From the NCBI GenBank assembly GCA_016932045.1, contig JAFGDO010000005.1, forward strand, positions 36,739-100,738: a stretch of 64,000 nucleotides of DNA. Reading direction: 5' to 3'. The DNA is from Candidatus Dojkabacteria bacterium. GTDB taxonomy: Bacteria; Patescibacteriota; Dojkabacteria; JAHIVN01. The position numbers and the translations under genes are program-made. This document shows positions 9,312 through 54,113 of this stretch, piece after piece. Below the pieces are notes generated by a model. The model worked only from the letters and a program-made list of their open reading frames with translations. It made no database searches and had not been told where the DNA came from. The stretch's first letter is position 1; every line of letters starts with the position of its first letter.

Positions 9312-12300
9312 CTACCCCCCTAGCGGAGATTTAGGTGTAGATTCTCTTTTACTCGGAATGGATTTAAAAGGAGAAGTGTACATCCTTCCTTTAGATTCAG
9401 TAGTCAATGCTTCCCCAGTTGGATCAACAAACAAATCCTGACTTACTCCCTTCGCCCTTGTCACACTCATCTGTAAAAGATTCTTTTTAATTCTGCCTTT
9501 AAACTCATTCTTTTGAGCTTCTGACGGGAATATATAGCCTTGTCTACCAACAGATAGATCATATTCTCCCGGTTCTGCAATAAATCCAAACCTACCTTTT
9601 TTGTCGCTCACTTGTAAATCAACGGGTTCATGTGTTGCAAGGTCAAATAGTCGAACAAATGAGGAGGCTACAGGTTCCTTGGATTTAGAATCTAGTACGA
9701 TCCCCCAAGATCTAACTCTTAAAAACTTTGCAATAATATCACTTATAGGAATTAGCAGAGAAAACAACACAAAACCTAGATTTATAACACCTAGATTAAA
9801 AACCAGATTAAACACTGAAACACCAAAACCCATATAGAATAATATTTTAACGATACCTCTTGCACTTCTATTAAAGAACTTTTTAATTGTATGTATGGAT
9901 CTAGAAAAATCTCCCAGCTTCTTTGATTCAAGCTCAAAATCAAGCGTAATCCTTTGTACATGTTTGCCTTTTATCCCTAGCTTCTTGGTTACCTTCTTAT
10001 AGTCACTATGGACAACCTCAATGCTATAGTCACCCGGATCTAGAACTATGCCATATCTTCCAGAAAGATCACTAACACTTTGTGTAGCTAAAGATCCATT
10101 ACTTGTATATGCTCTAACAACAGCAAACGCTACTGGTTTTTTGCTAAATGAATCCAAAGTTACCCCCCAAGCTTTTCTTCTTACTACACCTAGAAGAATC
10201 CCAATCGTATTGAAAAATACTCCTGCATTAAAAATATTAGTACCGAGTGTAAGAAGAAGATAAAACAAACCTATCATCCCAGCAGTCACAAACGATCCAC
10301 CTGTAAAGCCCCGTAATATTATTTCATTTTCTTCAAAAAACTCCTTTACAATATCAAGAATTGATGGTGTTGAGCTACTATCCGTTGGGTCACTTTCTCC
10401 TTCGTCTAACTTACCATTGCCATTCATATCTTCTTCTCCATCTTTGTACCCATCATCATCACTATCAGGATCATTCGGATCGGTTTTTCTGCCCTCACCG
10501 TAAGCACCAAGTATCTCAGTATAGTCACTCAAGCCATCAGAGTCTGAGTCAGAACTTAACGGGTCTGTATGATAGATATTAACCTCATCACCATCGCTTA
10601 TACCATCTCCATCACTATCACTACTATAAGGATCTGTACCCAATTCTATCTCAGTTCTGTTATCTAATCCGTCCCCGTCCTCATCTCCTTCGCCAGTTAA
10701 AGGAATACGACCATCCTCTCCCGGATCATTCGGATTATTCGGGTCAGTGCCGTATTTCTTCACCTCATCCCCATCGGAAAGTCCGTCATCATCACTATCA
10801 CTGTCATTCGGGTCTGTTCCGTGTTCCTTCACTTCTTCTCCGTCATTTATCCCATCATCATCTGTATCACTATCACATGGATCTGTCCCGTTCTCATATT
10901 CCTCCTTGTTTGTCAGTCCGTCACTATCCGGATCACCTCCACTATCGGGGACTGTTGATGATACACAATCATATCTGTCCTCCCACTCATCCGGTATCCC
11001 ATCCCCATCTGTATCTTCTTTCCCATCTACAAGCGGTGTAGCCGGTGCATATGCACAATTCACTGCATAGTCACATATCCCTCCTCCATCACAACTACCC
11101 TGACAACTATAATCTCCTCCCACGTTATACCTATTGTCTCCACTCCCTGAACTTCCTCTCCATCCGCTACCACATAAACTCCCCCCACTACATGTTCCTT
11201 GTGAACATCCTGTTCCTACTCCACAGTTAACCTTCTCCTGTCCTACTATGAAACTACAATTACTTATATAATCACACCTATACTGATCTCTTATCCTTTC
11301 ACACAGTCCATTACACCTCCAGCTCCCACTCCCGCACAACGCTGTCCCTTCCTTCCCGCAATCATCGGTTAATGTGTATCCTACACTTGCATACACATTC
11401 TCACTTCCTGCTCCTGTGTTATCTGTTCTACAGCTTCCTGCACCTCCACACGCCCGGTAATACTTCTTCCCTGTGCATTTTCCACTCTCGCATGTCTCTA
11501 TATATTCACAATTATTACTGCTGCTTGGTGCCTCATATGGCATTGTTCCTCCTCCTATCTGATTCTTCCCTACATTCCCATCAGGTACATCTTTCCCCTC
11601 TTCTTCGTAATGGTCACTTGTATCGCTATCACATACTCCCGCTCCTTCACACTCTGCATACCTTTGTGTATATGTACATCCTCCTAGAGTAGAGTAGTAA
11701 TTAATTATTCCTTCACAACTTGTCCTTTCCATAGCATCTGCTTCTCCGCAGTCTCCTTTCAATACCTTTCCTGCAGTTGCAAATACGTCCTCTGTTGCTG
11801 CTCCTGTGTTGTCTGTTCTACAGCTTCCTCCTCCGCTGCAGGCTCGGTAGTATTTCGTCGCACTGCATCCTCCTGCTCCACAAGTCTCTATATACTGACA
11901 ATTATTACTGCTGCTTGGTACTTCATATGGCACACTCCCACCTCCTGTCTGACTCTTCGCTACATTTCCATCAGGCACATTCCCCACTTCCTCTGTATAA
12001 TAGTCACTCGCATCACTATCACAAGTCCCGGCTCCATCACACTCCGCATACCTTTGCGCATATGTACAACTACCTTGACTTGAGTAGTAGTTTGTTCCTC
12101 CGCTACAATTTGTTCCTACTGTCCCATCTGTCTCACTACAATCATTTGTTAATATCTTTCCTGCTCCTGCTGTCACCCCTTCACTTGCTGCTCCTGTGTT
12201 ATCTGTTCTGCAGCTACCTGTCCCTCCGCATGCCCGGTAATATTTTACCGCTCCGCAATCCCCGCTATCACAATCTTCTACATACTGACAGTTATTACTG

Positions 12301-15300
12301 CTGCTTGGTACCTCATATGGCGTACTACTACCTCCACTTTGACCCTTTGCTACATTTCCATTTGGTACATTTAAGCCCACTTCTTCATAATAGTCACTTG
12401 CATCACTATCACATGTTCCTGCTCCATCACACTCCGCATACCTTTGCGTATAAGTACAACTCCCTGCTGCTGAGTAATAATTCACTCCTGCACATGATAA
12501 TGCCGGACTCGATGCATCCACCTCACTTCCTCCACTACATACTTTCATCTGACTCACATTTGCTGTAGCGTCATTTGTGTCACATGCTCCAGCTCCGTCA
12601 CAGTTACCATCCGGTCCTCTTCTTACACATGAACTGTCACAGCTTGTCCACCCTGCCGTGCACTCATTATGCGGATCCTGATTATCTGCTATTAAGTCAC
12701 ATGCTAAATCTCCATCACTACATGAGTAGCATGTCCCACATGCCCCTTTTTCTCCTCCTCCATATATCCCACATGCTCCTGACCCATTGCATGTTCCTGT
12801 TCCACATTCTGTTGCTCCACATTCATTATCTATATCCTGTCCGTTCGGCACATTTGTACACGTTCCTACCGATCCTGTTACATCACAGGCTCTGCATGTA
12901 CTTGTACATGTGCTATTACAACATACTCCATCTACACAGTTCCCTGACGAACACTCACTCCCTGCACTACATCCTTGTCCATTTACCAACTTACATGTCC
13001 CTGTACTTTCACATTCATAATTTGCTGGACAACTGTTCTGCCCTGAGGTGTAACATACTTCTCCTATTGTATCGTAATTCCCAGCCGCTCCTCCTTCAGG
13101 ACATGCCTTCTTGCATCCTGCTGATCCGCATACTCCTCCTCCCGCCTGCCCATTCTCTATGTTTTGTGCTGCACATTCCTGTACCTGTGTTCTGCATGCA
13201 CTTGCTCCATCACACATCCCTGGCGTGGTTGCTGACTTTAGTCTGCATGATAGGGGATTGCCTGCTCCCCATCCGTATATGTATCCTGTACAGTTTCTTT
13301 CTACACACTCGTCCTCCGGATCTGTCCCTGCCGCATGTGCGGTACATATCCCTTCACTTCCGCCTATGTTACATGCTTCGCATGTAACGGCACATGTCGT
13401 ATTACAACAGTACCCGTCTATACAATTTCCTGATGTACAGTCGCTTCCTAGCTGAATAATAACCTTTCCGCTTTCTTCTGGATCTCCGGCGACACCACGG
13501 TCAGGATCCGTACCTACTCCCTGTTGAGTAGTACCACTTGCTCCAGTTGGGTGCACATAACCTGATCCAGCACCACCACCCCCTCCAGCAGCAATGCTAG
13601 TGCCACCACCACCTCCTCCACCATAGTAACCACCACCACCACCTCCTCCTCCACAAAATGTACCAGTCCCTCCTGCACCGCCAACCCCTATAGCACCTGG
13701 TAATCCATTTCCTCCACCAGCGCCACCTACTGACTGAGTGCCACCATCTCCACCAAGTGTTCCTCCTTCAGAATTCTGCCCGTCTCCCCCTGTTGTCCCT
13801 CCTCCAATTCCACCATCGCCTCCTTTTCTATCGTAGGCAGCAGTTCCATCTTCAGACCCGCCGCCGCCACCACCACCCGCAATAATTAAAGAAACTCCAC
13901 TCCTACTAATTTCAGACCTCCCACCCCCACCTCCACCATCACCACCAGCAGCACTGGGATCACCGCCTTCTCCTCCGCCTCCATACCCTCCACCTCCACC
14001 AGCATTCCCTGTTTTACCAGCTCCACCAACAACAATAACTAATGTATCACCAGGTGATACCGGAATAATTCCTTGTGAGAACCCAGCCTCTTCACCATAT
14101 CCAGGATTATGATCATAATATGAAAAACCAGTTCCTCCGCCTGCTCCCCACATCTTTACTTTAACACTTGTAACTCCAGATGGAATTACATAGTTCTGTC
14201 CAGCACCTGTATAATTAAAAGTTAACGTATCACAAACCATCCCATTTTGCATTGTGCATACACTCGGTTCACCTCCACAATCCCATCCTGTCTCGTTAGT
14301 ACAAGTAGAAGAACACCCATCTCCATTTAGAGTCCCACCATCATCACACTCCTCAGTTCCTACCACAATCCCGTCCCCGCAGATCTCGGTACAACTACTA
14401 GGTTCACTGCTACAGTTCCATCCACTTTCAATTGTACATACTGAAGAACATCCGTCTCCACCTCCTGTCCCTCCGTCATCACATTCTTCGTCAATCTGGA
14501 TAACACCATCTCCACAATTAAAAGTTGAGGTGCATGTACCTTCGCTTCCCGGAACATCACATGCTTCATTCACTCCGTTGCATAATGTATCACAGCAGTA
14601 TCCGTCAACACAGTAATCAGATGTGCATCTTGATTCAATAATTATTACTCTTCCATTTTGTTCTGGACTCCCAGCTGTCCCTCTATATGGATCAGTTCCA
14701 ACTCCTCTTATGATGGTACCATTTAATGTATAACTTGTATTTAAATAACTTGAACCGCCACCTCCTCCTGCTCCATAGTGATCGTGCCCACCCCCACCCC
14801 CTCCGTAATATCCGCCTCCACCGCCCCCTCCCGGACCCCATCCGGTAGAAGCTGCTCCAATTCCTCCAGTTAGATATCCTCCATTTCCTCCTCCCGTTGC
14901 TCCTCCAGTCCCACCAGCAGACTGAGTACCCCCGGTTCCACCATACGCAATATCAATAGCATCACAATTATCTTCACCATCTTCTCCAGTTGAACCTCCT
15001 CCATCTCCTCCATCACCTGCACATGAGTTCGGAGAGGACCCTCCTCCTCCTCCTGCTCCTATTATCAGTGGAGTTCCATCACTCTTCTCGAGTGCCGATC
15101 TTCCTCCTCCTCCTCCTGCTATCATTCCTTGACTTCCTGTACCTCCATTACCACCACCTCCCCATCCTCCAGTAGGCTTTGTACCAGCTCCCCCAGCTAT
15201 TATAGTAATCGTCTCTCCGGGCGTTACATTGACATCTGCATCAGAGAATCCGCCTCTGCCACCAGTACACGTTCCAGCAAGACATGTTCCTTTATGTCCA

Positions 15301-17249
15301 CCTGCTCCCCACAACTTTACATGTACCCGATTAACACCTGCAGGTACTGTATAATATTGTTCTGAACCTGTATATTCATATACATCATAGCTGCATGACA
15401 TACCATTTGGTAATGTACATATTGTAGGTTCTCCACTACAATCCCATCCACCTTCCAGTGTACAAGTAGATGAACATCCATCTCCATTACTCATATTCCC
15501 ATCATCACAGGCTTCAGTTCCCTGAACTAATCCATCTCCACAAGCTATGACAGAATAGACTAAACTTACACTGTCAAGCGTTGGAGTGCCTGAACCATCT
15601 GAAATCAGGATAATTCTGTAATAAAAGTTAGCACTAGTCCATCCAAGAGAAGAAATATCTATTGAATTACTACCAGAAGAAAGTGAATTAGTACCATCAA
15701 CAACACCACTTGAGTTATACCACGTAGAAGTATCCTGACTAAATTGTACAGTTGCAGAAGTACCAGCAGGTAGAGTAGTAAGATTATATTCAAAAGAATC
15801 AATTGAGGTTATATCTGTCTCCCCTGCAAGCAAGTTTACAGATTGAATAATTGGAGTTTTAGTATAGTAAACACCGGATGCACCATGCCCCTTGCCTCCA
15901 CCCCAATCACATCCACCCGTCATAAAAGCTCCGCTGTAATCCTTCGTACCAGAACCTCCATAAGCATTATAAGTAATAAATAATGTTCCACCTGCACCTC
16001 CTCCACCATCACCTGGACAGTCTTTTGTCCCAGTACAACCAGTACCTCCAGCTCCACTTTCTCCGGAAACATTTAATGCTCCATTATTTGTCAACTGGGG
16101 AGTAACAATATAGATAATCCCTCCTCCATCTCCACCATATCCACCTTGGTATATATCATCTCCTCCTCCTCCTCCTCCTCCTGAGCCAAGAAAAAGTTTA
16201 TAAAGACTCGCGTATGAACTTCCTCCTGTTCCACCAACGCGCACCGTTCCTCCAACTATACTTGTAGTTGACTCCCCTGTAGTCCCAGTTCCATTATATC
16301 CACCACCTCCACCTCCTGCTCCACCATGACAACCAACAGAAGATCCCCCCCCAGAAGGATCCCCCTCGCCAGCACCTCCTCCACCATCATTATTTGCAGT
16401 CGTCTGACTCGAGGAACCACCAAATGGCCCCAACCCTGTATATCCTAAGTTATCTCTAGGACCACGTGCTCCCCCAGGGAACCCCAACCCCGATACACTT
16501 ATCTCACCACCCGACTGAATATTCACATTTCCCGTTGCACGAAATACTAGTACTCCTCCTCGCCCTGTGCCATCATCATACAAAGGCGTTGTCATAACAC
16601 CCCCACTTTGAACTGTAACATTCGTATACTGAGGAACACGAATTACTTGGCATCTATTTGTTCCACTACCGGAATATGCATATGTCGTGCCTCCAGCCCA
16701 TAAAATGGTATTACCGGCAACAATAACATTCTTTTTAAACTCAGATTCTCCCGCATTAGTACCTTTCATCTGAATTATAAGAATTTCATCACCAGTTGAA
16801 AATCCAGTCGCATCACCTACTGTCATTGATGTTGTACCCACGGGATAATCAGAAGTTATATGTGTATAAAGATTTGTTTCCGGATAGGCTGTTGATATAG
16901 TTGTAGCGCCATCCGTACCATCGCCTTCATCCATATAGGTAATATCATTTATCCGTGCTTGCCCAGCAGCCAAAACATAGTTCCAAGAATTAGAGGCATC
17001 AATTTTTGAAGCGTCGGCATAATCATCTGAAACAGAGGCTACTGCAGCTTCCGTGACCTCGATCTCTTCGGTCACAGATCTAGTCATAACTATAGTCAAT
17101 CCAATGGCCCCAAGAATTAGAAAGGAGGCAAAAAAAAGTAACGGCACTCTTCTTTCCTTATCATTTGCCTTATTTAGCATATTTTTGAGCGTTTTCCTGA
17201 GAGAATTACTCATTACATGTGCGTCTAAATCCTGAGAATAATTATCCAT
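9312..17249 (-). CDS. Giant (2645 aa) membrane-anchored repetitive surface protein. Its architecture is: N-terminal TM anchor; Gly-rich beta-solenoid-like regions; Myxococcus-type Cys-rich repeats (CGDG..GEECDDGN..GDGCS..C); CxxGxCC Cys-knots; three 130-aa Cys-rich tandem repeats; thrombospondin-type-3 Asp-rich Ca-binding repeats; and a C-terminal pair of TM segments each followed by a CarboxypepD_reg/transthyretin-like beta-sandwich.
   Basis: A single uninterrupted 7.9 kb ORF. The domain calls come from motifs read in the translation: [27 protein letters not shown] (Myxococcus-type repeat), VKLWGAGG / VKMWGAGGG Gly-rich modules, DSDGDG..DGEE..GTDP (TSP3-type repeats) and WGVTLDS...[16 protein letters not shown] (CarboxypepD_reg-like). 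The plus-strand ORFs in this interval are His/Leu/Ser-rich antisense artefacts. Confidence 0.8.
10380..11030. repeat. Thrombospondin type-3-like Asp-rich calcium-binding repeats (coding, within the giant gene)
   Basis: Eight or more repeats of D.D.DG..D..E..GTDP..(S)DSD.DG in the translation. Confidence 0.65.
11400..12600. repeat. Three near-identical tandem repeats of about 390 nt (about 130 aa each, Cys-rich) inside the giant gene
   Basis: The string tgctcctgtgtt(a/g)tctgttct(a/g)cagct recurs at 11411, 11799 and 12188 (period about 388-389 nt). The flanking sequence is highly similar over hundreds of nt, and the protein repeats are [11 protein letters not shown]...SCRTDNTGA units. Confidence 0.8.
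13460..15420. repeat. Two divergent copies (about 780 nt each) of a Gly-rich module (Y.TG..Q.Y.VP.GV..V.VK.WGAGGG ... GVGTDP.RG.AG.PE..G.VII) within the giant gene
   Basis: Protein-level duplication: one copy starts [16 protein letters not shown] and the other starts [16 protein letters not shown], with the same motif order in each. Poly-Gly tracts of this kind are encoded by GGN runs, which appear antisense as 'ccacc' strings. Confidence 0.65.
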
Positions 17250-45424: not shown

Positions 45425-47464
45425 ATGAAACAATTCTTAAAAAATCACTGGGACGAAGTTACTATCCTAGCAATCACAGCATTAATATCAGCAGTAATCT
45501 TTATTCCATTTTTTGTAAACAATTCCTTAGACAAATTCGACACACCAGGTCTTTTGTCACTCAGCTGGTTTATACGAGAATACACCTTTCCGGACTTTCA
45601 AGGCTGGAATCCTTACTTCTTTGCAGGATTTCCGCAGGGAATTCTGTATCCGCCACTTTTTCACTGGCTTGTAGCCTTGCTTGGAAAAGTTTTTCATCTA
45701 TCCGTTGCATACAAACTAATCATAACAGCTGCAGCAGCTTTTATCCCGTTTTCTATTTATGAGTTCAGTTTGAGAATTTTCAGACAAAAAACTTGGTCAA
45801 TATTAAATACTATAGCTTTACTTATAACTCTTACAGTACTACCGGGTTATCTTGGATTTAATTTCGATGGGGTTTTTGATTACGGCCTAGGACCAAGTTT
45901 TGTAACCATCCCCTTGTTCTTTGGCTACCTTGCGTTACTTTTAGAGAGGAAAAAGAATATAAAGTTTATGTCTTGTCTTTTCAGTTTAATGCTCCTTACA
46001 AATCTCGTTGCACCCTTTGTCGCTGGTATAATTACAATAGTATATTTCTTGTTGAAATTAAATAGAGCAAAGCAATTATTTATGAAGCTTGCCAAATTTG
46101 GACTTTTGAGTCTGCTTCTTACTCTATTTTGGATAATTCCCTATCTTGTGTTTAGGCAGTATACAGCCTCAGGTTTTCCCCCAATGAGATCAAATCTTAT
46201 TATTTCAGGAATTGCTCTTTTCGGATCAATAGGCAGTCTAGCTTTTATCATCTGGAAGGGTGAAGAATCGAAAAGAAAATCTTTTTTGGCATTATTAATA
46301 CCTGCTATTCTTATATCTGCTTTAAATGTAATCGACTCAAGGATTAGTATCTCTATACCTCCTATCCACCCGTTCAGGCTTCAAATATTCTCATTCATTC
46401 CTGTCGCATCTGCTGTTATATATGTGATTCAAATACTTCACCCATCTTTCTTAAAACTAGGGATGAGGTTAAAGATCATGAAGTTTTTACAGCGCAATGT
46501 ACATATAAGTTTCAATCTTTTCTTTGTTTGTTTTTGTCTAATCTTTCTTCTCATAATCCGGCTTAATCCCAGTGGGGTAGATGAGGTAGAACTTGCAAAC
46601 GAATTAGATTGGGAGGGAAGGATTATGCGTGCTTATAAAGTTACCGAAGTTCTAGACCAGTCAAGATCAGTAATAGATAGATCGGTAATGAAAAAAGAGT
46701 ACAAATTTGCAGTAGACGGATTACTAAAAGAATCAAGCTATCTTGCACCATACTACCAATCATTGTCGAAAAGTCTAAACCCGGAAAACTTCACTTGGGA
46801 AAAACTTGATCAGAAATATATCGAAAACAAGCAGGTCCCAGAAGAAAGAACGAAGTATCTTATGAACTTGCTTTGGGTCAAAAGTCTGTTCGTGATTGAT
46901 GAGAATTTTCCTAATTGCGAGAATTTCAAAAAAATATCTCAATTCAAATCAAACTCAAAAAACGAGGGCATACGTGATATAGAAATGTACATCTGCTCCT
47001 ATCCTTACTCTTTAAATAGTAACCTTGTTGAGATGGTTACGGAAAAGCCAAAAGTAGTAGAGAACAATTGGAATAACGCAGTAGATGAGTGGTGGATAAG
47101 TGATAACCAAGAACTATTTACAGACAAAGAAGTTGTTACAAATACAAATATTCCGGTTAATTTTATTCCGGATGTAGAATTTAGTGATGATTACCAGAAA
47201 GTATATATAAGCACAGGAGTCAACGAGGAAATTCCATTCCTTGTAAAAATGAGCTACTTCCCAAAATGGAAAGCATATGACAAAGATGGAAATAGGGTAG
47301 AGATATATAGAACGTCCCCAAATCTTATGATTGTACCTGTAAATGATAAAGTTACTTTAAAATATGAGACAACAATTATTGAGTGGGTTACCTTTGTGAT
47401 TTCAGTAATCAGCTGGAGCAGTCTAGTAGTAATATCAGTTGCCAGAAAGATTAAAGGAATATAA
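45425..47464 (+). CDS. Large polytopic membrane protein with YfhO/GT-C-like architecture (putative membrane glycosyltransferase)
   Basis: 679 aa with about 12 N-terminal TM helices, a roughly 250-aa soluble domain and a terminal TM helix. Only the architecture fits YfhO-type proteins; no diagnostic motif was read. Confidence 0.45.
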   Translation: MKQFLKNHWDEVTILAITALISAVIFIPFFVNNSLDKFDTPGLLSLSWFIREYTFPDFQGWNPYFFAGFPQGILYPPLFHWLVALLGKVFHLSVAYKLIITAAAAFIPFSIYEFSLRIFRQKTWSILNTIALLITLTVLPGYLGFNFDGVFDYGLGPSFVTIPLFFGYLALLLERKKNIKFMSCLFSLMLLTNLVAPFVAGIITIVYFLLKLNRAKQLFMKLAKFGLLSLLLTLFWIIPYLVFRQYTASGFPPMRSNLIISGIALFGSIGSLAFIIWKGEESKRKSFLALLIPAILISALNVIDSRISISIPPIHPFRLQIFSFIPVASAVIYVIQILHPSFLKLGMRLKIMKFLQRNVHISFNLFFVCFCLIFLLIIRLNPSGVDEVELANELDWEGRIMRAYKVTEVLDQSRSVIDRSVMKKEYKFAVDGLLKESSYLAPYYQSLSKSLNPENFTWEKLDQKYIENKQVPEERTKYLMNLLWVKSLFVIDENFPNCENFKKISQFKSNSKNEGIRDIEMYICSYPYSLNSNLVEMVTEKPKVVENNWNNAVDEWWISDNQELFTDKEVVTNTNIPVNFIPDVEFSDDYQKVYISTGVNEEIPFLVKMSYFPKWKAYDKDGNRVEIYRTSPNLMIVPVNDKVTLKYETTIIEWVTFVISVISWSSLVVISVARKIKGI

Positions 47465-47502: not shown

Positions 47503-47769
47503 TCATTTAACAGAAATTGATATCTGACAGCTAAACCCGATCATGCGTCCACCAATTCCATCATACACTCCTGAACTTTCAGTCTTCGCCCCAGCTTGTT
47601 CTGCGACTACTATAACAGCACTAGAAGCCTGTTCAACGATATCTTTATGCATACCACTAACTACCACATTTCCTCCTTGAAATATATCCACCTTAACATC
47701 AAAAGGTTTACCTGCTTCAGCTGCTTCGTGAATAATAGCCTGTAATGTCTCAGCTTGCTCGACCATCAT
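47503..47769 (-). CDS. Small hypothetical protein
   Basis: 88-aa ORF with an alternating hydrophobic beta-strand pattern (DVKVDIFQGGNVVVSG...AVIVVAEQAG). A SpoVS-like assignment was considered but is not supported. Confidence 0.35.
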   Translation of the reverse strand: MMVEQAETLQAIIHEAAEAGKPFDVKVDIFQGGNVVVSGMHKDIVEQASSAVIVVAEQAGAKTESSGVYDGIGGRMIGFSCQISISVK

Positions 47770-47928
47770 AGGTCGTCTCTTTATGAAATATAAAACATTG
47801 GCTTCATTATATCCTTGTTAGTGATATAAAGACAATCGCTACGTTATATACATAATATATTTGCGCGGCCTTTCAACTATACTTTTTCTATTGCAACAAC
47901 ACAAGGTAAGTATCTAAAAACACTGAAT

Positions 47929-48714
47929 ATGAAAATTATCCTTTTAGCTGATAAAAATAGCTTAAGAAAAATACCCTCAAGCAATCAAATGTTTCTTGAG
48001 GGCTGCATCAAAATGTTCAGCGATTATAACAGGAGAAAAGAAGTCGAGATTCAATGTCCAGAGAATATCAAAAAAAAGATAAAAAAATTATTCCCTAAAT
48101 TCCCTGTTTTTACTGAACCCATACAAAAAGGAACTGCTCCAGCAATAGGACTTGCTATGACGCGAGTATATTTATCAAACCCCAACGAAACTGTAGTAAT
48201 TGTCTATACTGACCACCCTGTAAGTTATAAAAGTAAACTTTTAACTGCTTTTAAAACAGGAGAAACTTTTTGCAAAGGTTTAAAAAGATCCATTCTCTTA
48301 GGAGTAAATCCCACATTCCCTGCAACCAAATATGGTTACCTCAAAATAGGAAAAGTACTTCAAACAATGAATGGTTCAATAGTATTTGAAATGATTGATT
48401 TTTGTGAAAAACCAAGTAAGCAGAAGGCAGAAGAATTTTTAAAATCCTGGCGTTACCTTTGGAATACAGGATATTTAATTGCAAAACCAAAAGATATTCT
48501 TAAGATTTATCAAGTTGCATTACCAAAAATTTACAAGGGATTGATGACTATAAGAGAGTCAACCGGAACGAACATTGAAAAAAAGATTGCCTATACAGTA
48601 TTTAAGAATTTTACTTCTACTTCAATCGACAAAGGCATTTATGAGAAGATGAAGAAGAACAAGGTGGGAATAATCCCAATCGATTTGGGTATTCGAGATT
48701 TCGAAGATTTCTAA
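47929..48714 (+). CDS. ManC-like sugar-phosphate nucleotidyltransferase with a degenerate N-terminal Gly-rich loop
   Basis: FTEPIQKGTAPAIGLA...VVIVYTDHPV...ILLGVNPTFPATKYGYLKIG aligns with the mannose-1-phosphate guanylyltransferase segment EPAGRNTAPAIALAA...LVLAADHVI...VTFGIVPDLPETGYGYI. The GGxGxRLWP motif is replaced by LLADKNSLRKIP. Confidence 0.55.
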   Translation: MKIILLADKNSLRKIPSSNQMFLEGCIKMFSDYNRRKEVEIQCPENIKKKIKKLFPKFPVFTEPIQKGTAPAIGLAMTRVYLSNPNETVVIVYTDHPVSYKSKLLTAFKTGETFCKGLKRSILLGVNPTFPATKYGYLKIGKVLQTMNGSIVFEMIDFCEKPSKQKAEEFLKSWRYLWNTGYLIAKPKDILKIYQVALPKIYKGLMTIRESTGTNIEKKIAYTVFKNFTSTSIDKGIYEKMKKNKVGIIPIDLGIRDFEDF

Positions 48715-48742
48715 AATTAATTTTAATTTTTACTTTTGTGCC

Positions 48743-49747
48743 ATGAAAAAAATCATAACAGCTTCAGCTCCTGGAAGAATAGACCTTTCCGGTGGAGCAA
48801 CAGATTGGTGTGGAATGCATACAATGTCAATAGCCATAAACCTTCGAACATATGCAAAAGTAACAAGATTAAAAGATTCTAAAAAGGTTCAAATCAAAAT
48901 AGGGGAGCTTGAGGAGGAATATTCAAGACCAAGATATGGTACAAAGCTTGATTTATTTAAAGCAGTAATTGAACTGTCAAAACTAAAAGGTTTTAGAGTT
49001 GAGTATCAAACTGATATTCCCAGGGGCTCGGGTTTAGGAGGGTCTGCACCCTTGACAGTCTCAACACTTTTTGCTCTAAATGAACTATATGACCAAAAGT
49101 GGAACAAGTATTACATTGCAGAACTAGCTCAAAGGGCCGAAACATTAAAACTCGAAACTGTAAACGGATACCAGGATCAGTATACTGCAACATTTGGTGG
49201 TCTCATATTCATGGATTTTGAAGGCAAGGAGTGTCAAAAAGGTAAATACAGTAAACCAATTAACGAAGAACCCTATACTGTAGTTGAGAATCTAACAGAG
49301 TATCTCCCCGACTTCCATATAATTGTAGCGGTTCCTGAAATCACAAGAAAAAGTTCTAATGAAACAAACAGCTCTGTTAGTGCAAGGTTCTTAAACGGCG
49401 AAAAAGAAATTGTTGATAAGATGACACTTAAAGCACAGTTAACTCAAGAAGCGAAAAAAGCACTAATTGACGGGCGAATGAATGATCTATACAAGCTGAT
49501 CAATCAGAATAATGACATCATGAGAAGCTTTGGATTTGTATCCGATGATAATGAAAAAATAATTGAGGTAGCAAGTATAAACGGAGCACTGGCATGTAAA
49601 ACCTGTGGAGCGGGTAGGGGAGCAGTCGCAATTTTTGCAAAGGACAAAAAACACCAAGTAAAAATATTCGAAGCCTTAAAGCCTACTGTCGAGCATATCT
49701 TCAAAATAAAAATTGCCAAGGGGGTAAGAATTGAAAAGAAAAAATAG
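48743..49747 (+). CDS. GHMP-family sugar kinase (HddA/fucokinase-like)
   Basis: PGRIDLSGGATDW (motif 1), IPRGSGLGGSAPLTVSTLFAL (ATP-binding motif 2) and KTCGAGRGAVAIF (motif 3). Confidence 0.75.
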   Translation: MKKIITASAPGRIDLSGGATDWCGMHTMSIAINLRTYAKVTRLKDSKKVQIKIGELEEEYSRPRYGTKLDLFKAVIELSKLKGFRVEYQTDIPRGSGLGGSAPLTVSTLFALNELYDQKWNKYYIAELAQRAETLKLETVNGYQDQYTATFGGLIFMDFEGKECQKGKYSKPINEEPYTVVENLTEYLPDFHIIVAVPEITRKSSNETNSSVSARFLNGEKEIVDKMTLKAQLTQEAKKALIDGRMNDLYKLINQNNDIMRSFGFVSDDNEKIIEVASINGALACKTCGAGRGAVAIFAKDKKHQVKIFEALKPTVEHIFKIKIAKGVRIEKKK

Positions 49748-49763
49748 GAAATACAAGCTAATA

Positions 49764-50510
49764 ATGTTCGATATTGATGGCGTTTTAAATAAGCACGGTG
49801 ACAACATCCAAAATACAAGCAAAGAGGCGATCAGAATTTTGCGTCGTCAAGGGATAATGGTCTGTTTTGCTTCCGGAAAACATGCTTGGTACATACAAGG
49901 TGGTTTAATCTGGAGCGGATTACTAAGACAGGATACATTAATTGTAGCTGAAAACGGTGGAGTAATATATAAGCCTTCTACAAGAAAGACTATCCTTGAG
50001 GATAAGTATATTCAAGATGTACAGCTACTAAGGAGTATTTTTTATAATCTCTATTCAAAAGACGAAGGATTTTTAAACTTTGCTGGTCTTACTGTCTGGG
50101 AGGAACCGAAAGAAACTTTGTTCTGCCTATACCCAAAAGATGCTAAAGATGTTCAAAGACTTGCTGAAATTCTTGAAGAAATTGTAAAGGTTAATCGACT
50201 AAACCTATACTTAGTTGAGAATCCCGACTCAGTTGATGTCCTACAAAAAGGAATAAATAAATCAACAGGCCTCAAACATATCTGTGACTGGCTGGGGGTT
50301 GATTTTGATGAGATAATAGCTGTTGGTGATAGTTACAATGATATTGAAATGCTAAAGGATGTCGGTTTTGGTATTACTCTTGAGAATGGAAAACCCGAAG
50401 TAAAGAAAGTTGTTAAATTCAAAAGAGGGAGGGGATTGATCACGAAGAATTCATATGGTGAGGGAGTTCTAGAGGCAGTTAAATGCCTGATAAATAAAAG
50501 AATTATCTAA
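49764..50510 (+). CDS. HAD-superfamily phosphatase, Cof-like (subfamily IIB)
   Basis: MFDIDGVLN (motif I DxDG), FASGK, and GDSYNDIEML (motif IV). The track ORF starts at TTG 49731, overlapping the kinase gene; ATG 49764 is preferred. Confidence 0.7.
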   Translation: MFDIDGVLNKHGDNIQNTSKEAIRILRRQGIMVCFASGKHAWYIQGGLIWSGLLRQDTLIVAENGGVIYKPSTRKTILEDKYIQDVQLLRSIFYNLYSKDEGFLNFAGLTVWEEPKETLFCLYPKDAKDVQRLAEILEEIVKVNRLNLYLVENPDSVDVLQKGINKSTGLKHICDWLGVDFDEIIAVGDSYNDIEMLKDVGFGITLENGKPEVKKVVKFKRGRGLITKNSYGEGVLEAVKCLINKRII

Positions 50511-50638: not shown

Positions 50639-51562
50639 TTGATGTTAAAAGTCACTAACCTAACAAAAAATTACGGTCAGACAAAGGCTCTTGATAAAGT
50701 TACATTTTCAGTAGAGAAAGGCAAAATTACAGCTTTTTTGGGACCTAATGGTGCAGGGAAAACAACAACAATGCGCATTCTTACAGGCTTTTTACTTCCA
50801 GAGTCCGGTAAAATCACTTTTGATGAAAGGTCTTTAAAACTAAAACTTTCCGAAATTATCAATGAAATAGGATATTTGCCCGAGAATAACCCGATGTATT
50901 CAAACCTTCGTGTTGATGAATTCTTAAAATGGATAGCACAGATGAAAGGAGCTCACCATTCAGAGAATCTTTTAGAAATCGCGGAGAAATGCGGCATAGA
51001 TAAGGTACTTGATAAGGAGATTGATACTTTGTCAAAAGGATACAAGCAGAGAGTAGGGCTTGCAAAAGCATTAATAGGAGAACCTAATTATCTTATTCTT
51101 GATGAGCCGACTGAGGGACTGGATCCAAATCAAAAACAGGAAATTCTTAAGCTGATAAAGGAAGTCTCAAAGGAGAAAACTATTCTTTTTAGCTCACATG
51201 TCTTATCTGAAGTAACACAAGTAGCTCACAATGTAATCATTATAAACAAAGGGAAAGTAGTAGCCGAAGGAAACAAGGAAGCATTGCTGAAAGAACATCT
51301 AAAGAACGCAACAATTAAGATTGCAACTGATGCACCTACAACTAAACTGAGACAAACCTTGCAGAAAATAAAAACTATAGAAGCCATAGCAAAAACCACA
51401 AATAGACGAACTGGGTTTAATGAGTATACAATAGGCTGTAAGGATCCCGAAGAAACAGCTTTGAAAATATTTGAAAATATTGTGCGGAATAAATGGAAAT
51501 TAACGGAATTACACACTGAGTCCTTAGGTCTTGAAGAACTATTTACAGAATTGACAAAGTAA
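50639..51562 (+). CDS. ABC transporter ATP-binding protein (ABC-2 / GldA-like)
   Basis: GPNGAGKTTTMRIL (Walker A), LSKGYKQRVGLAKAL (signature) and ILDEPTEGLD (Walker B). Confidence 0.85.
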   Translation: MMLKVTNLTKNYGQTKALDKVTFSVEKGKITAFLGPNGAGKTTTMRILTGFLLPESGKITFDERSLKLKLSEIINEIGYLPENNPMYSNLRVDEFLKWIAQMKGAHHSENLLEIAEKCGIDKVLDKEIDTLSKGYKQRVGLAKALIGEPNYLILDEPTEGLDPNQKQEILKLIKEVSKEKTILFSSHVLSEVTQVAHNVIIINKGKVVAEGNKEALLKEHLKNATIKIATDAPTTKLRQTLQKIKTIEAIAKTTNRRTGFNEYTIGCKDPEETALKIFENIVRNKWKLTELHTESLGLEELFTELTK

Positions 51563-51668
51563 ATGGGAATTAGGTTCTATATTCTTGTTCCGGGCTCCAG
51601 CCTGGAAAACTGTTGAATAAATTTAAACATATAAGTTTCAAGCTTGAGCTTGGAACTAGAGTTAATAA

Positions 51669-52415
51669 ATGAAAAACATACTACTCGTCATCAAAAAAGA
51701 ACTGAAAGACTACTACATATCACCTATTGCATATGTTGTGATTTCCGCATTTGTAGTCCTGATTACTTTAAAGTTTATAACAAGTGTTTTTGTAGATAAT
51801 GTTGCAGATATGCGCAATATTTTTTATGAGTGGGAGTTTCCGGATCTTCCCCCAATGCCGATTCTTTTAATTCTTGTAATTCCTGCATTAACCATGCGAA
51901 GCTGGGCAGAAGAAAGAAGAGAGGGAACACTAGAAGTAATCTCGACTCTCCCCATATCAAACATTGGACTTATTGTAGCCAAGTTTATATCGTGCTTTCT
52001 TTTTACGACATTTATGCTACTTTTAACCCTACCCATACCAATTACATTAAATATTCTTGGCAACCCTGATAACGGAGTTATAATAGCTGGCTATTTGGGA
52101 CTGATTCTTCTATCAGCTAGTTACATTTCAATCGGTCAGTTTGTCTCTATAAATACTCGGAATCAAATTATTTCATTTATTCTTTCATTCGTACTCATCA
52201 CGATGCTTTATATATTTGGAGAAATACAGTTCCTGCAGTATGTCCCATCTTCTCTCAGATTCTTATTTGGATCTCTCGGACTTGGCTCTCATCTAAGAAG
52301 CATAGCTAAGGGAGTTCTCGACTCGAGAGATATTCTTTACTATATATCGATAATAGCTTTGTTATTTTACTTTACTTATAGAAGTTTTCAGAGAATTAAA
52401 AGGACGGGCGAATAG
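51669..52415 (+). CDS. ABC-2 family permease (GldF-like)
   Basis: 248 aa with 6 TM helices, directly downstream of the ATPase. Confidence 0.65.
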   Translation: MKNILLVIKKELKDYYISPIAYVVISAFVVLITLKFITSVFVDNVADMRNIFYEWEFPDLPPMPILLILVIPALTMRSWAEERREGTLEVISTLPISNIGLIVAKFISCFLFTTFMLLLTLPIPITLNILGNPDNGVIIAGYLGLILLSASYISIGQFVSINTRNQIISFILSFVLITMLYIFGEIQFLQYVPSSLRFLFGSLGLGSHLRSIAKGVLDSRDILYYISIIALLFYFTYRSFQRIKRTGE

Positions 52416-52481
52416 TCCACGTTAGAGTTTAGATCAGTTTGAGCTATAGGCTTATCAGCCGAGGCTGAAGATCGCTCAGAA

Positions 52482-54113
52482 ATGGAAATAACACTAAAAA
52501 AACCAAAAGTAAATTCTCAGAGTTTCTTTAAGTTCCTAATCTACATCGGGTCAAGTACTCTGTCGCAGATGCTTGTCTTATTTGTGGTGCTTATCGGGAT
52601 CAATATATTGTCACAAAGTTTCTTTGTGCGCTTTGATCTTACTGAAACTAAGACTTATACATTATCGGATGGAACAAAAAGTATAATCAGTTCTCTGGAG
52701 GATCCGGTAACAATCACAACATACTTCTCAAAGAATTTGCCACCTGATATCCTGCCTGTTACAAAGGACATAAAGGATATTCTCGAAGAATATGTCCGTT
52801 TTTCCAATGGTAAAATAATTTTAGAGAATAAAAATCCCGACGATGAAGATTTTAAAAACAAGGCAAAAGCAGCAGGGGTCCCTGAAATAAGATTTAGCGA
52901 ATTTTCTTCTGATAAGTTTGAGGTTGCAACAGGATTTTTAGGGATCGGCATAAAGTATAAAGAGCAGACAGAAGCAATAGAATTAATAACAGAAGTTACG
53001 AACCTGGAATATGAAACGACTTCAAAGATCTATAAGTTATCAATTAATGAAAAACCTACGGTCGGATTCTTAACAGGACATGGTGAAAAAAGTTCTTTTG
53101 CAGACTATAGCGGTGTAACAGATCTTATTGAAGATCAGTTTAAAGTAGAATCAGTAAGCTTATCAGAAGGGGAACCGATTGATCCTGATAAAATAAATAT
53201 CCTAGTGATAGCATCACCCACCTCACCACTGTCACAAAGAGATTTGTTTGAAATAGACCAATATATTATGAGAGGCGGAAAACTGGTTGTCCTTGCAGAC
53301 CTTTATAGCCTTGATTTTCAAAACCCGCTCCTCACAAAGACGGATAACAATATTAACGAGCTTACCAAAAAATATGGCGCAGAATTTCTAGAATCAATCC
53401 TTTTAGATGAATCATACCTGCCCATACAATCAGGATTCTATCAAATAGCCTATCCGTTCTGGATCCTTACACAGAATGAGAACCTTGATACAGATAATCC
53501 AGTTGTGAATAAGCTTGAATCCATTGTTTTCTTCTGGGCAAATCCTTTAAAAGACATTACTTCCGAAGGGCAGTCATTTAAACCTCTTGTAAAAACAACC
53601 GATGACGCATGGGTATCAATTGGTGAAAGCATTTCCATAGAACCCGTGAAATTCTCGCCCGGAGAACAGAACCAATATGTCGTTGCTGCAGTTGTAGAAG
53701 GAAAACAGACAAGTGCCTTTAAGGACCAGGGTGTACCATCTCTAGATGCTATTGAGATTGAGGACACCGAAGAAACAAGAGAAGACAAAAGAACAGATGA
53801 AACACCGAGAGTCGATGAGATAGAAAATACAAGAATTGTACTCATAGGTGACAGTGAATTTATCTCAAATGATTTTGCTGGAGGCTCTGAGCAAAACTCA
53901 GTATTCTTTACAAATCTGCTTGAATGGCTTTCAGGTTCTGAGGACTTGATGTCCATAAGATCAAAGTTTATTGAGAGGCGACCTCTTGATGTTATAGATG
54001 ACACTGCAAAGGTGTTTACAAAAATAGCCAATGTAGTATCAGTTCCGATCCTCCTTATCACTCTCGGGGTAGCTTATAACATACTAAGGAAGAAACAGAG
54101 AAGTTTGTTATAA
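52482..54113 (+). CDS. GldG-family ABC-transporter auxiliary protein
   Basis: N-terminal TM then FVRFDLTETKTYTLSDGTKSIISSLEDPVTITTYFS, the hallmark N-terminal region of GldG/ABC_transp_aux proteins. A C-terminal TM helix follows. Confidence 0.7.
   Translation: MEITLKKPKVNSQSFFKFLIYIGSSTLSQMLVLFVVLIGINILSQSFFVRFDLTETKTYTLSDGTKSIISSLEDPVTITTYFSKNLPPDILPVTKDIKDILEEYVRFSNGKIILENKNPDDEDFKNKAKAAGVPEIRFSEFSSDKFEVATGFLGIGIKYKEQTEAIELITEVTNLEYETTSKIYKLSINEKPTVGFLTGHGEKSSFADYSGVTDLIEDQFKVESVSLSEGEPIDPDKINILVIASPTSPLSQRDLFEIDQYIMRGGKLVVLADLYSLDFQNPLLTKTDNNINELTKKYGAEFLESILLDESYLPIQSGFYQIAYPFWILTQNENLDTDNPVVNKLESIVFFWANPLKDITSEGQSFKPLVKTTDDAWVSIGESISIEPVKFSPGEQNQYVVAAVVEGKQTSAFKDQGVPSLDAIEIEDTEETREDKRTDETPRVDEIENTRIVLIGDSEFISNDFAGGSEQNSVFFTNLLEWLSGSEDLMSIRSKFIERRPLDVIDDTAKVFTKIANVVSVPILLITLGVAYNILRKKQRSLL

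Follow-up and report, generated by a model that had tools for sequence, protein, structure and literature searches.

A conserved three-gene unit of Dojkabacteria that pairs a putative anomeric sugar kinase and a phosphatase with a probably non-catalytic ManC-derived protein

A stretch of 64,000 nucleotides from contig JAFGDO010000005.1 of Candidatus Dojkabacteria bacterium (assembly GCA_016932045.1, positions 36,739 to 100,738; this whole stretch is termed the window) harbors three co-directional genes, whose products are a ManC-derived nucleotidyltransferase-fold (NT-like) protein, a kinase of the GHMP superfamily and a phosphatase of the haloacid dehalogenase (HAD) class IIB. The three genes constitute a conserved, self-contained unit, which probably makes a sugar-1-phosphate rather than a nucleotide sugar and would thus not be a complete sugar-activation cassette. 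As a tentative reading by analogy, the trio may encode a kinase-phosphatase route to a (manno-)hexose-1-phosphate resembling that of HddA and GmhB, accompanied by a non-catalytic, ligand-binding partner that descends from ManC.

The trio and its ManC-derived first member

The trio in the window comprises the following genes:
47929..48714, + strand: ManC-derived NT-like protein, 261 aa; Pfam NTP_transferase
48743..49747, + strand: putative GHMP-superfamily sugar kinase of the HddA/WcbL-like anomeric type, 334 aa; Pfam GHMP_kinases_N/C and GalKase_gal_bdg
49731..50510, + strand: HAD-IIB (Cof-like) phosphatase, 259 aa from the start codon TTG 49731; Pfam Hydrolase_3/S6PP

The open reading frame (ORF) calls and Pfam matches agree with the initial annotation, which had described three co-directional and tightly packed ORFs at these coordinates: the NT-like and kinase genes are separated by 28 nt, and the kinase and HAD genes overlap by 17 nt. 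An alternative HAD start, ATG 49764, is used by some orthologues. Exact matches to the NCBI proteins JW766_01970 and JW766_01975 assign the window to a metagenome-assembled genome (MAG) of Candidatus Dojkabacteria.

About 12 separate Dojkabacteria contexts, whose flanks are unrelated, show the order NT-like, kinase, HAD, and the stop and start codons of the trio genes often overlap in them. These contexts are the window, L001/L121, L002/L003/L091/L013, L004/L005/L011/L094/L095, L006, L010, L090, L092, L120, L122, the P0006 contig and L097, the last of which is counted with a full-length ManC paralogue in the NT-like slot. Because the gene order recurs in so many genomic contexts, the arrangement is far beyond chance, and the proposal that the trio is a conserved functional unit, for which gene order in relatives had been suggested as a check, is upheld. 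In the tiny genomes of the Candidate Phyla Radiation (CPR), a three-gene unit kept in many lineages likely matters for obtaining or building cell-surface sugars. Two contigs with doubtful-looking organism labels also carry a Dojkabacteria-type short NT-like gene, namely L011 (CAZVJU010000008.1, titled 'uncultured Gammaproteobacteria', 54% identity) and L012 (CAYSKC010000127.1, titled 'uncultured Candidatus Saccharibacteria', 48% identity).

The N-terminus of the NT-like protein reads MKIILLADKNSLRKIPSS. A ManC-derived protein with a truly degenerate glycine (Gly) loop had been proposed, and both an alignment of 11 orthologues with three canonical ManCs and a motif table of 26 sequences bear this out. 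The loop GGxGxR(L/F)WP is replaced by (I/V)(I/L)AD..SL in all of the approximately 20 orthologues (LLADKNSLRKIPS in the window), and the improved alignment, named beforehand as a check that might uncover a conserved loop, left this replacement in place. The acidic residue D8 stands in the position of the first loop Gly, while the column of the loop Arg is occupied by R in the window protein alone (LLADKNSLRKIP), by K in a few orthologues and elsewhere by V, N, T, I, A or D. Two additional losses had been missed by the initial annotation. A 14-residue deletion takes out the SRxxxPKQF segment with the PK lysine in every orthologue, and the NT-like proteins stop short of the C-terminal beta-helix domain of about 100 aa, with the window protein ending at residue 261 and PF22640 unmatched. 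The absent Gly loop is not an annotation artefact, because 47929 is the first start codon past an in-frame stop, and all orthologues begin with MK(I/V); an upstream alternative start that would restore the loop was rejected on account of the same stop.

The match of the NT-like protein to Pfam PF00483 (NTP_transferase) spans only profile positions 65-193 of 245, the best NCBIfam model, the GMP/PMI equivalog TIGR01479, gives 92.8 bits and falls below its cut-off of 372.95, and the best solved relative, the GDP-mannose pyrophosphorylase 2x5s of T. maritima, is aligned from residue 47 onward only. The 11 orthologues found are 41-58% identical and 249-261 aa long, and all are located on Dojkabacteria-type contigs. 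An exhaustive profile search of 1.84 billion representatives retrieved only about seven clusters of the short family, followed by P0112 (359 aa, 231 bits) and then by ordinary ManCs of 355-365 aa at 183 bits or less, and a scan of the GTDB species representatives disclosed the short form in four records only.

The fold itself is preserved. The AlphaFold2 (AF2) model of the NT-like protein reaches a pLDDT of 92 and a pTM of 0.89, and Foldseek superimposes it on the GDP-mannose pyrophosphorylase 2x65_A with a TM score of 0.85 and a root-mean-square deviation of 2.3 A (E = 1.2e-20). The window protein retains EPxxKGTAPA, TDH with the Mg-binding Asp (xDH), YGY, FCEKP as its version of F(V)EKP, WNTG, SIDK and D252, and the main branch to which it belongs keeps EPxxKGTA, SDH/TDH, YGY, F.EKP, WNTG, SIDK and the second Asp. 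Judged from these motifs, the pocket predicted for mannose-1-phosphate and Mg2+ is kept by the NT-like protein in most lineages.

Additional losses were discovered in a monophyletic sub-branch composed of P0012 (locus L090), P0109, P0111, P0113 and the L122 gene, where SDH is converted to ANQ, WNTG to WDTG, SID to S(F/M/V)A, and F.EKP to FQRDL, FRRHI, FERNP or FERTP. Within the main branch, L120 reads SVH where the others have SDH, and the Mg-binding Asp is lost there as well. The further-decayed genes nonetheless remain inside the trio. The F(V)EKP motif has been reported as indispensable to the activity shown by GDP-mannose pyrophosphorylase, in which its Glu and Lys contact mannose and phosphate (PMC3671423).

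Having lost the Gly loop that binds the triphosphate, along with the Arg of this loop, and also the segment of the PK lysine and the C-terminal domain, the NT-like protein appears incapable of nucleotidyl transfer, and it is likely not a nucleotidyltransferase. The loss of both basic catalytic elements, together with the sub-lineages that lack the Mg-binding Asp and F(V)EKP, indicates that it is most likely non-catalytic, and it is probably a pseudo-enzyme or a ligand-binding subunit rather than an atypical transferase. The trio, which had been regarded as sufficient for producing an NDP-sugar, is thus probably not so, and the public names of the NT-like gene ('mannose-1-phosphate guanylyltransferase' or 'sugar phosphate nucleotidyltransferase') are probably wrong.

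The origin of the family can be approached through P0112, the nearest full-length ManC, which a neighbour-joining tree calculated without bootstrap places as sister to the short family. In P0112 the loop has already become GGTGSGLYP, with Gly for Arg, and the Asp motif YTNH, with Asn for Asp. At L097, a gene resembling P0112 (65% identity within its C-terminal 155 aa) is situated directly 5' of a Dojkabacteria-type kinase and HAD. Likely, a full-length ManC paralogue in the operon first lost its catalytic residues and was subsequently trimmed at both ends. The family would thereby display a stepwise decay from enzyme to pseudoenzyme, of which a full-length, P0112-type intermediate still occupies the same operon slot.

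The kinase-phosphatase pair and its proposed route

The type of the kinase was judged by its motifs, its catalytic dyad, the ranking of PDB profile matches and the genomic context; profile scores were not decisive. Motif I (SAPGRIDLSGGATDW) carries an Arg and GGxTD, as do HddA and fucokinase-type enzymes, in place of the Lys and GEHxVV found in the mevalonate-kinase-like sequences of the alignment, and NGYQDQY is also present; the window segment PGRIDLSGGATDW contrasts with PGK/PAK..LFGEH in P0096 and P0097, both mevalonate-kinase-like. Across 18 kinase sequences R12 and D145 do not vary, and they line up with R13/D163, the catalytic dyad of the heptokinase WcbL (PMC4691232). When the family profile was compared with the PDB, the HddA-like structure 4n3o ranked first with 137 bits in one full-length stretch, and the mevalonate kinase of M. 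mazei came next with 127 bits in two stretches. The protein is likely an anomeric sugar or sugar-phosphate kinase. The assignment to the HddA/WcbL/fucokinase type made in the initial annotation is therefore sustained by the Arg of motif I, NGYQDQY, R12/D145 and the context of sugar metabolism, and the check that might have placed the kinase in the mevalonate or homoserine kinase clades led elsewhere by motifs, dyad and context. The suggested kinship with Fkp does not go beyond the GHMP superfamily, as the Fkp model PRK13412 is matched only in its kinase part, at 42.5 bits (cut-off 721).

The phosphatase matches Hydrolase_3 (115 bits) and S6PP (53 bits) in Pfam, and it exceeds the cut-off of the HAD-SF-IIB model TIGR01484 (69.5 versus 41.8 bits). 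All of its catalytic motifs are intact, including FDIDG (DxD), SGK (Ser), NK (Lys) and GDSYND (GDxxND), and they are conserved in 18 Dojkabacteria and archaeal sequences. A Cof-type phosphatase, as first described, is thus confirmed by the IIB cap and the four motifs, though the Cof-subfamily score (114 bits) lies just under its cut-off of 137. The likeness to GmhB and membership of a heptose pathway were not borne out: the protein is a 259-aa enzyme with a IIB cap, in contrast with the capless HAD-IIIA enzymes of about 180 aa, the HAD-SF-IIIA model reaches only 29.9 bits (cut-off 44.6) over residues 9-51, and no GmhA-type gene was found at any trio locus examined, where the isomerases are phosphoglucose/phosphomannose isomerases (PGI/PMI) with SIS and bact-PGI_C domains.

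Outside Dojkabacteria, the closest kinases (35-41% identity) make up an archaeal family, as yet uncharacterised, in MAGs of Methanofastidiosia, Theionarchaea, Thorarchaeota and other Euryarchaeota. In most archaeal loci that extend far enough downstream, the orthologous kinase is directly followed by an orthologous HAD-IIB. The Dojkabacteria HAD and its archaeal counterpart have the family-specific motifs SGKHxWY and WEEPKET in common, so kinase and phosphatase form an orthologous pair in the two groups. The pair is accompanied by a canonical NTP-transferase and an epimerase/dehydratase in the archaeal clusters L007/L099 and L106/L108, and in L106 also by AglB/STT3, GT2, PMT_2 and a radical-SAM gene; in these clusters it takes the place in which one would look for a phosphomannomutase. 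The following genes encode an archaeal NT-fold protein with a cupin-like C-terminal extension beside the kinase-HAD pair:
L106, 4962-6032
L108, 4956-6032
L007, 8710-9711
L099, 7701-8711
The loops of these four sequences (two pairs) read AGEKNGYNP or GGYGAALKP and their PK lysine is replaced, so that a loop-degenerate NT-fold partner accompanies the pair in archaea too.

The proposed route is modeled on HddA and GmhB, which convert heptose-7-phosphate via the 1,7-bisphosphate into heptose-1-phosphate (PMC10680097). The GHMP kinase would phosphorylate the anomeric C1-hydroxyl of its substrate, likeliest a manno- or gluco-configured hexose-6-phosphate, to give the 1,6-bisphosphate, by analogy with HddA and WcbL. 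Subsequently, the HAD-IIB phosphatase, as the dedicated partner of the kinase, would take off the distal phosphate as GmhB does, and the net reaction would turn a sugar-6-phosphate and ATP into a sugar-1-phosphate without a phosphomutase. The two enzymes are expected to act at different positions, as in HddA/GmhB, because a lone kinase and phosphatase would otherwise run a futile cycle. Mannose-6-phosphate would be the most likely substrate, being favored by the PGI/PMI and ManC neighbours and by the ManC ancestry of the first gene. The NT-like protein may serve as a non-catalytic partner that binds the sugar-1-phosphate or a GDP-sugar and acts as a sensor or scaffold for the kinase and phosphatase, in the manner of GMPPA, a non-catalytic, GDP-mannose-binding paralogue that regulates GMPPB (PMC11228364). 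Nucleotide activation, where present, would be accomplished by another enzyme whose Gly loop is intact, and such a gene lies beside the trio in some relatives.

The surroundings of the trio in Dojkabacteria point to sugar metabolism. Genes for PGI/PMI and/or phosphoglucomutase/phosphomannomutase (PGM/PMM) adjoin it in 8 of 12 contexts; PGI/PMI (SIS+bact-PGI_C) was found near the trio in five contexts, and PGM/PMM-family genes flank it directly in five (L002, L004, L006, L120 and L122). A ManC-like gene of 362 aa with an intact Gly loop is located near the trio in two of about 12 contexts (L002/L091 and the P0006 contig), and at L122 and L004 the trio lies amid genes of PGI, pyruvate phosphate dikinase (PPDK), enolase, the phosphoglycerate mutase iPGM and the inositol-monophosphatase (IMPase) family.

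As a bolder and quite unlikely extension, the kinase and HAD-IIB would represent an undescribed, ATP-driven and phosphomutase-independent route from hexose-6-phosphate to hexose-1-phosphate in several archaeal lineages and Dojkabacteria, which would require a dead NT-fold subunit recruited independently on each side (ManC-derived versus RmlA-like with a cupin) as a sensor of the product or GDP-sugar or as a channelling scaffold. If the pair bypasses the phosphomutase, standard pathway reconstruction would miss the route, and the capacity of the MAGs of these bacteria and several archaea for making GDP-mannose would be misjudged in either direction. The superfamily of each protein was already known, and the logic resembles that of the HddA/GmhB pathway. 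No description of the kinase/HAD-IIB pair, its sharing between archaea and Dojkabacteria, or the conserved, stepwise-decayed ManC paralogue was found in the literature searched, which likewise yielded nothing relevant on mannose metabolism in Dojkabacteria or on any archaeal pair of GHMP kinase and HAD that has been characterised.

Alternative explanations and neighbouring genes

Several observations weigh against the proposed route. The substrates of kinase and phosphatase are predicted from context and analogy alone, and the sister relation of the Dojkabacteria kinase clade to the archaeal family comes from a tree without bootstrap. NCBIfam models for mevalonate kinase slightly outscore the HddA model on the kinase, all of them far below cut-off, and both kinds match 18 of 18 family members at that level, so that the scores do not separate them. 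The residues for sugar-1-phosphate and Mg2+ are strictly conserved in the main branch of the NT-like family, window protein included, and a new catalytic activity of these proteins may exist. When the 64-kb window was searched by tblastn for PGI, PGM/PMM, ManC, IMPase and archaeal-type NT genes, only the short NT-like gene was found. Moreover, the PGM/PMM genes beside the trio in five contexts make a phosphomutase bypass look redundant there, and their adjacency is just as compatible with a role in salvage or in cofactor supply.

The first of these roles, the salvage of free sugars, is unlikely, and it survives best among the alternatives. In such a pathway the kinase would phosphorylate a scavenged hexose (mannose, glucose or galactose) at C1, PGM/PMM and PGI/PMI would pass the sugar-1-phosphate to glycolysis or ManC, and the HAD and dead ManC would be regulators or overflow valves. 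The directly flanking PGM/PMM genes and the glycolytic company at L122 and L004 suit this explanation, as do the superfamily relatives fucokinase and galactokinase, which use free sugars, and the pocket of WcbL, which binds free mannose (PMC4691232). However, it leaves without a role the phosphatase, which among the kinase's partners is the best conserved and the most closely coupled in Dojkabacteria and archaea, and the archaeal clusters with the pair carry no adjacent PGM. The PGM/PMM genes beside the trio are unusually long, about 704-740 aa:
L002, 7863-9977
L004, 4294-6513
L006, 5744-7882, - strand
L120, 5590-7710, - strand
L122, 4454-6673
Some of these long PGM/PMM-family proteins are very divergent, with Pfam domains I-III barely detected, and at L004 a normal 450-aa PGM/PMM adjoins the long form. 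The trio at L004 is followed by three tandem IMPase-family genes (10582-13099, + strand) and, past a Y1 transposase gene, by PGI/PMI and PPDK.

The view of the initial annotation, in which kinase, phosphatase and nucleotidyltransferase form a complete cassette and the ManC-like enzyme is active with an unusual loop or substrate, is improbable. In its favor, the window protein and main branch strictly conserve the Mg-binding Asp (TDH/SDH), F.EKP, YGY, WNTG, SIDK and the second Asp, the fold is preserved, an Arg chances to stand at the aligned loop position of the window protein, and no canonical ManC was seen within 10 kb at most trio loci. Nevertheless, that Arg is variable among the orthologues, the PK segment is deleted in all of them and the first Gly has given way to D8; the Mg-binding Asp has disappeared from at least two lineages, one of which also lost F(V)EKP, yet they kept the gene and the trio. 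The NT-like gene evolves faster than its partners, being the least conserved trio member in 36 of 36 genome pairs (over nine genomes its mean identity is 45%, that of the kinase 59% and that of the HAD 63%), and a loop-intact ManC-like gene adjoins the trio both in L002/L091 and on the P0006 contig. The former copy (L002 12599-13687, + strand, which equals L091 2146-3234; 362 aa), shortly 3' of the trio, has an intact GGAGTRFWP loop and PKQ, but WTYRP in place of F.EKP and DG in place of DH, a pattern of losses complementary to that of the short NT-like protein.

The supply of a cofactor is distinctly improbable. Here the kinase, with chemistry identical to that of the favored route, would make a hexose-1,6-bisphosphate activator for alpha-phosphohexomutases, whose level would be set by the HAD and the ManC-like sensor. 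It would account for the direct abutment of PGM/PMM-family genes, several of unusual long form, in the five contexts, and in mammals the HAD-IIB enzyme PMM1 is known as a glucose-1,6-bisphosphatase. On the other hand, no PGM lies nearby in the archaeal clusters, the window, L001, L121 and L010, and for a cofactor needed in catalytic amounts a three-gene operon would be a costly outlay in so reduced a genome.

A mevalonate-pathway or other non-sugar GHMP kinase, which would render the trio unrelated to glycans, is hardly tenable: the mevalonate-kinase model PRK03926 scores nominally best (100.3 bits), such models match 18 of 18 family members, and JGI labels several archaeal relatives 'mevalonate kinase', but the scores are far under the cut-offs (100 versus 403 for PRK03926; 82.6 versus 163 for TIGR00549), the best stretch of PRK03926 covers residues 5-158 in the N-terminal half while 4n3o matches at full length and top rank, motif I has Arg and GGxTD instead of Lys and GEHAVV, and every informative context belongs to sugar metabolism. 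Equally far-fetched is a first gene that is a functionless, decaying remnant, as its progressive loss of catalytic motifs and faster evolution than its neighbours might suggest, given that the NT-like reading frame stays intact at 249-263 aa across about 20 lineages only 36-67% identical, with 37 invariant columns among 12 sequences, a high-confidence fold and a rough ratio of nonsynonymous to synonymous substitution rates (dN/dS) of about 0.19 from L001/L121, the closest pair and the sole one unsaturated at synonymous sites. The gene is under purifying selection.

In the window, the following features lie 5' of the trio:
45425..47464, + strand: polytopic membrane protein with GT-C fold, 679 aa, outside the conserved unit
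47503..47769, - strand: hypothetical gene JW766_01965 of the NCBI annotation, 88 aa, between the GT-C gene and the trio
47770..47928, no strand: intergenic region of 159 nt, presumed to hold the trio's own promoter
The 159-nt region contains only weak promoter-like matches, for instance on the + strand at 47829-47856 with 9/12 positions. The best Rfam match there has E = 0.27 and no RNA family was recognized, and a search around the trio for a riboswitch, another RNA element or a clear terminator gave nothing above noise.

The membrane protein had been described as YfhO/GT-C-like and as lying downstream of the trio; its gene lies upstream, and of the two family assignments only the GT-C fold stood. 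The protein has no sequence match in Pfam, NCBIfam or the PDB, and its homologues, which share invariant D36/D39 in the first loop, were found in CPR bacteria only. Its AF2 model (pLDDT 87.6) retrieves in Foldseek exclusively GT-C enzymes as top matches, including AftD, AftA, ArnT, AglB, ALG9 and DPY19, with E = 7.5e-6 to 5.7e-4 and probability 1.00 for AftD, AftA, ArnT and AglB. Relatives of the protein give weak matches to PTPS_related, DUF6541 and GT-C_AftD, while a match to the YfhO family was absent from the window protein and 21 relatives. The role in surface-glycan or giant-protein glycosylation deduced from this neighbour is not supported by conservation, for GT-C homologues are missing from all other trio loci examined, and the 464 nt between the GT-C gene and the trio hold the opposite-strand gene JW766_01965, which has a close relative in a second assembly, lacks a Pfam match and is absent from the other trio loci.

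The giant protein itself is encoded by a 2645-aa ORF at 9312-17249 (- strand), with 20% glycine, on the sole GC-rich stretch of the window (0.44-0.50 versus about 0.35), which is strongly C-skewed. A link between trio and giant protein was rejected, the ORFs of 2017 and 2137 aa right after the trio in L001 and L121 being unrelated to the 2645-aa protein. Directly 3' of the trio, 50639-54113 (+ strand) encodes an ABC ATPase, an ABC-2 permease and a GldG-like ABC_transp_aux/DUF7088 protein, which are not conserved beside the trio elsewhere. The neighbours in the window are housekeeping genes, comprising UvrA (by sequence inspection), YbeY, the ABC-2 transporter with its GldG-like protein and a MiaB-like enzyme.

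Comparison with known systems

A close parallel is the HddA/GmhB/HddC heptose pathway, in which a GHMP kinase that shares the subtype (R/D dyad, GGxTD, QDQY) and phosphorylates a sugar phosphate at C1 is likewise combined with a HAD phosphatase for the distal phosphate and an NTP-transferase-fold protein (PMC10680097, PMC4691232). The trio differs in its HAD-IIB (Cof-like) phosphatase, where GmhB is HAD-IIIA, in the lack of a linked GmhA, the linked isomerase being PGI/PMI or, in archaea, a cupin, and in an NT-like protein that is ManC-type with lost catalytic loops, whereas HddC is RmlA-type. Furthermore, the kinase aligns over its full length with the HddA model NF049969 but attains only 93.8 bits, below the equivalog-level cut-off of 600.

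With ManC, represented by the T. maritima GDP-mannose pyrophosphorylase (2x5s/2x65), the NT-like protein shares the fold, and the window protein keeps EPxxKxTAPA, xDH, GYGY, F(V)EKP, WNxG, SID and the second Asp. It differs by lacking GGxGxR(L/F)WP, PKQ and the beta-helix domain, and by its length of 261 aa compared with about 335-360 aa.

GMPPA, and also plant KONJAC with VTC1, provides a precedent for an NT-fold paralogue that is conserved though catalytically disabled, and the ligand-binding or regulatory role proposed for it in the GDP-mannose pathway (PMC11228364) may apply to the NT-like protein by analogy; the structures 7d72 and 8yre are among the fold matches of the NT-like model. In contrast with GMPPA, the NT-like protein has an independent bacterial ManC origin outside the GMPPB/RmlA-like lineage, is truncated where GMPPA has an insertion, and is encoded with a kinase and a phosphatase, whereas GMPPA pairs with a catalytic paralogue.

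Fkp consists of an NT-fold module followed by a GHMP anomeric kinase, the same order from N to C terminus as that of the trio from 5' to 3'. In the trio, however, the genes are separate, the NT part is ManC-type and inactive-looking, and a phosphatase is added.

Finally, the archaeal pair of kinase and HAD-IIB is orthologous to that of the trio in both members, which are adjacent or overlapping, and some archaeal clusters contain a loop-degenerate NT-fold protein together with a canonical NT. The archaeal degenerate NT-fold protein differs from the NT-like protein of Dojkabacteria in being RmlA-like with a cupin-like C-terminal extension, in standing at another position and in being absent from several loci.

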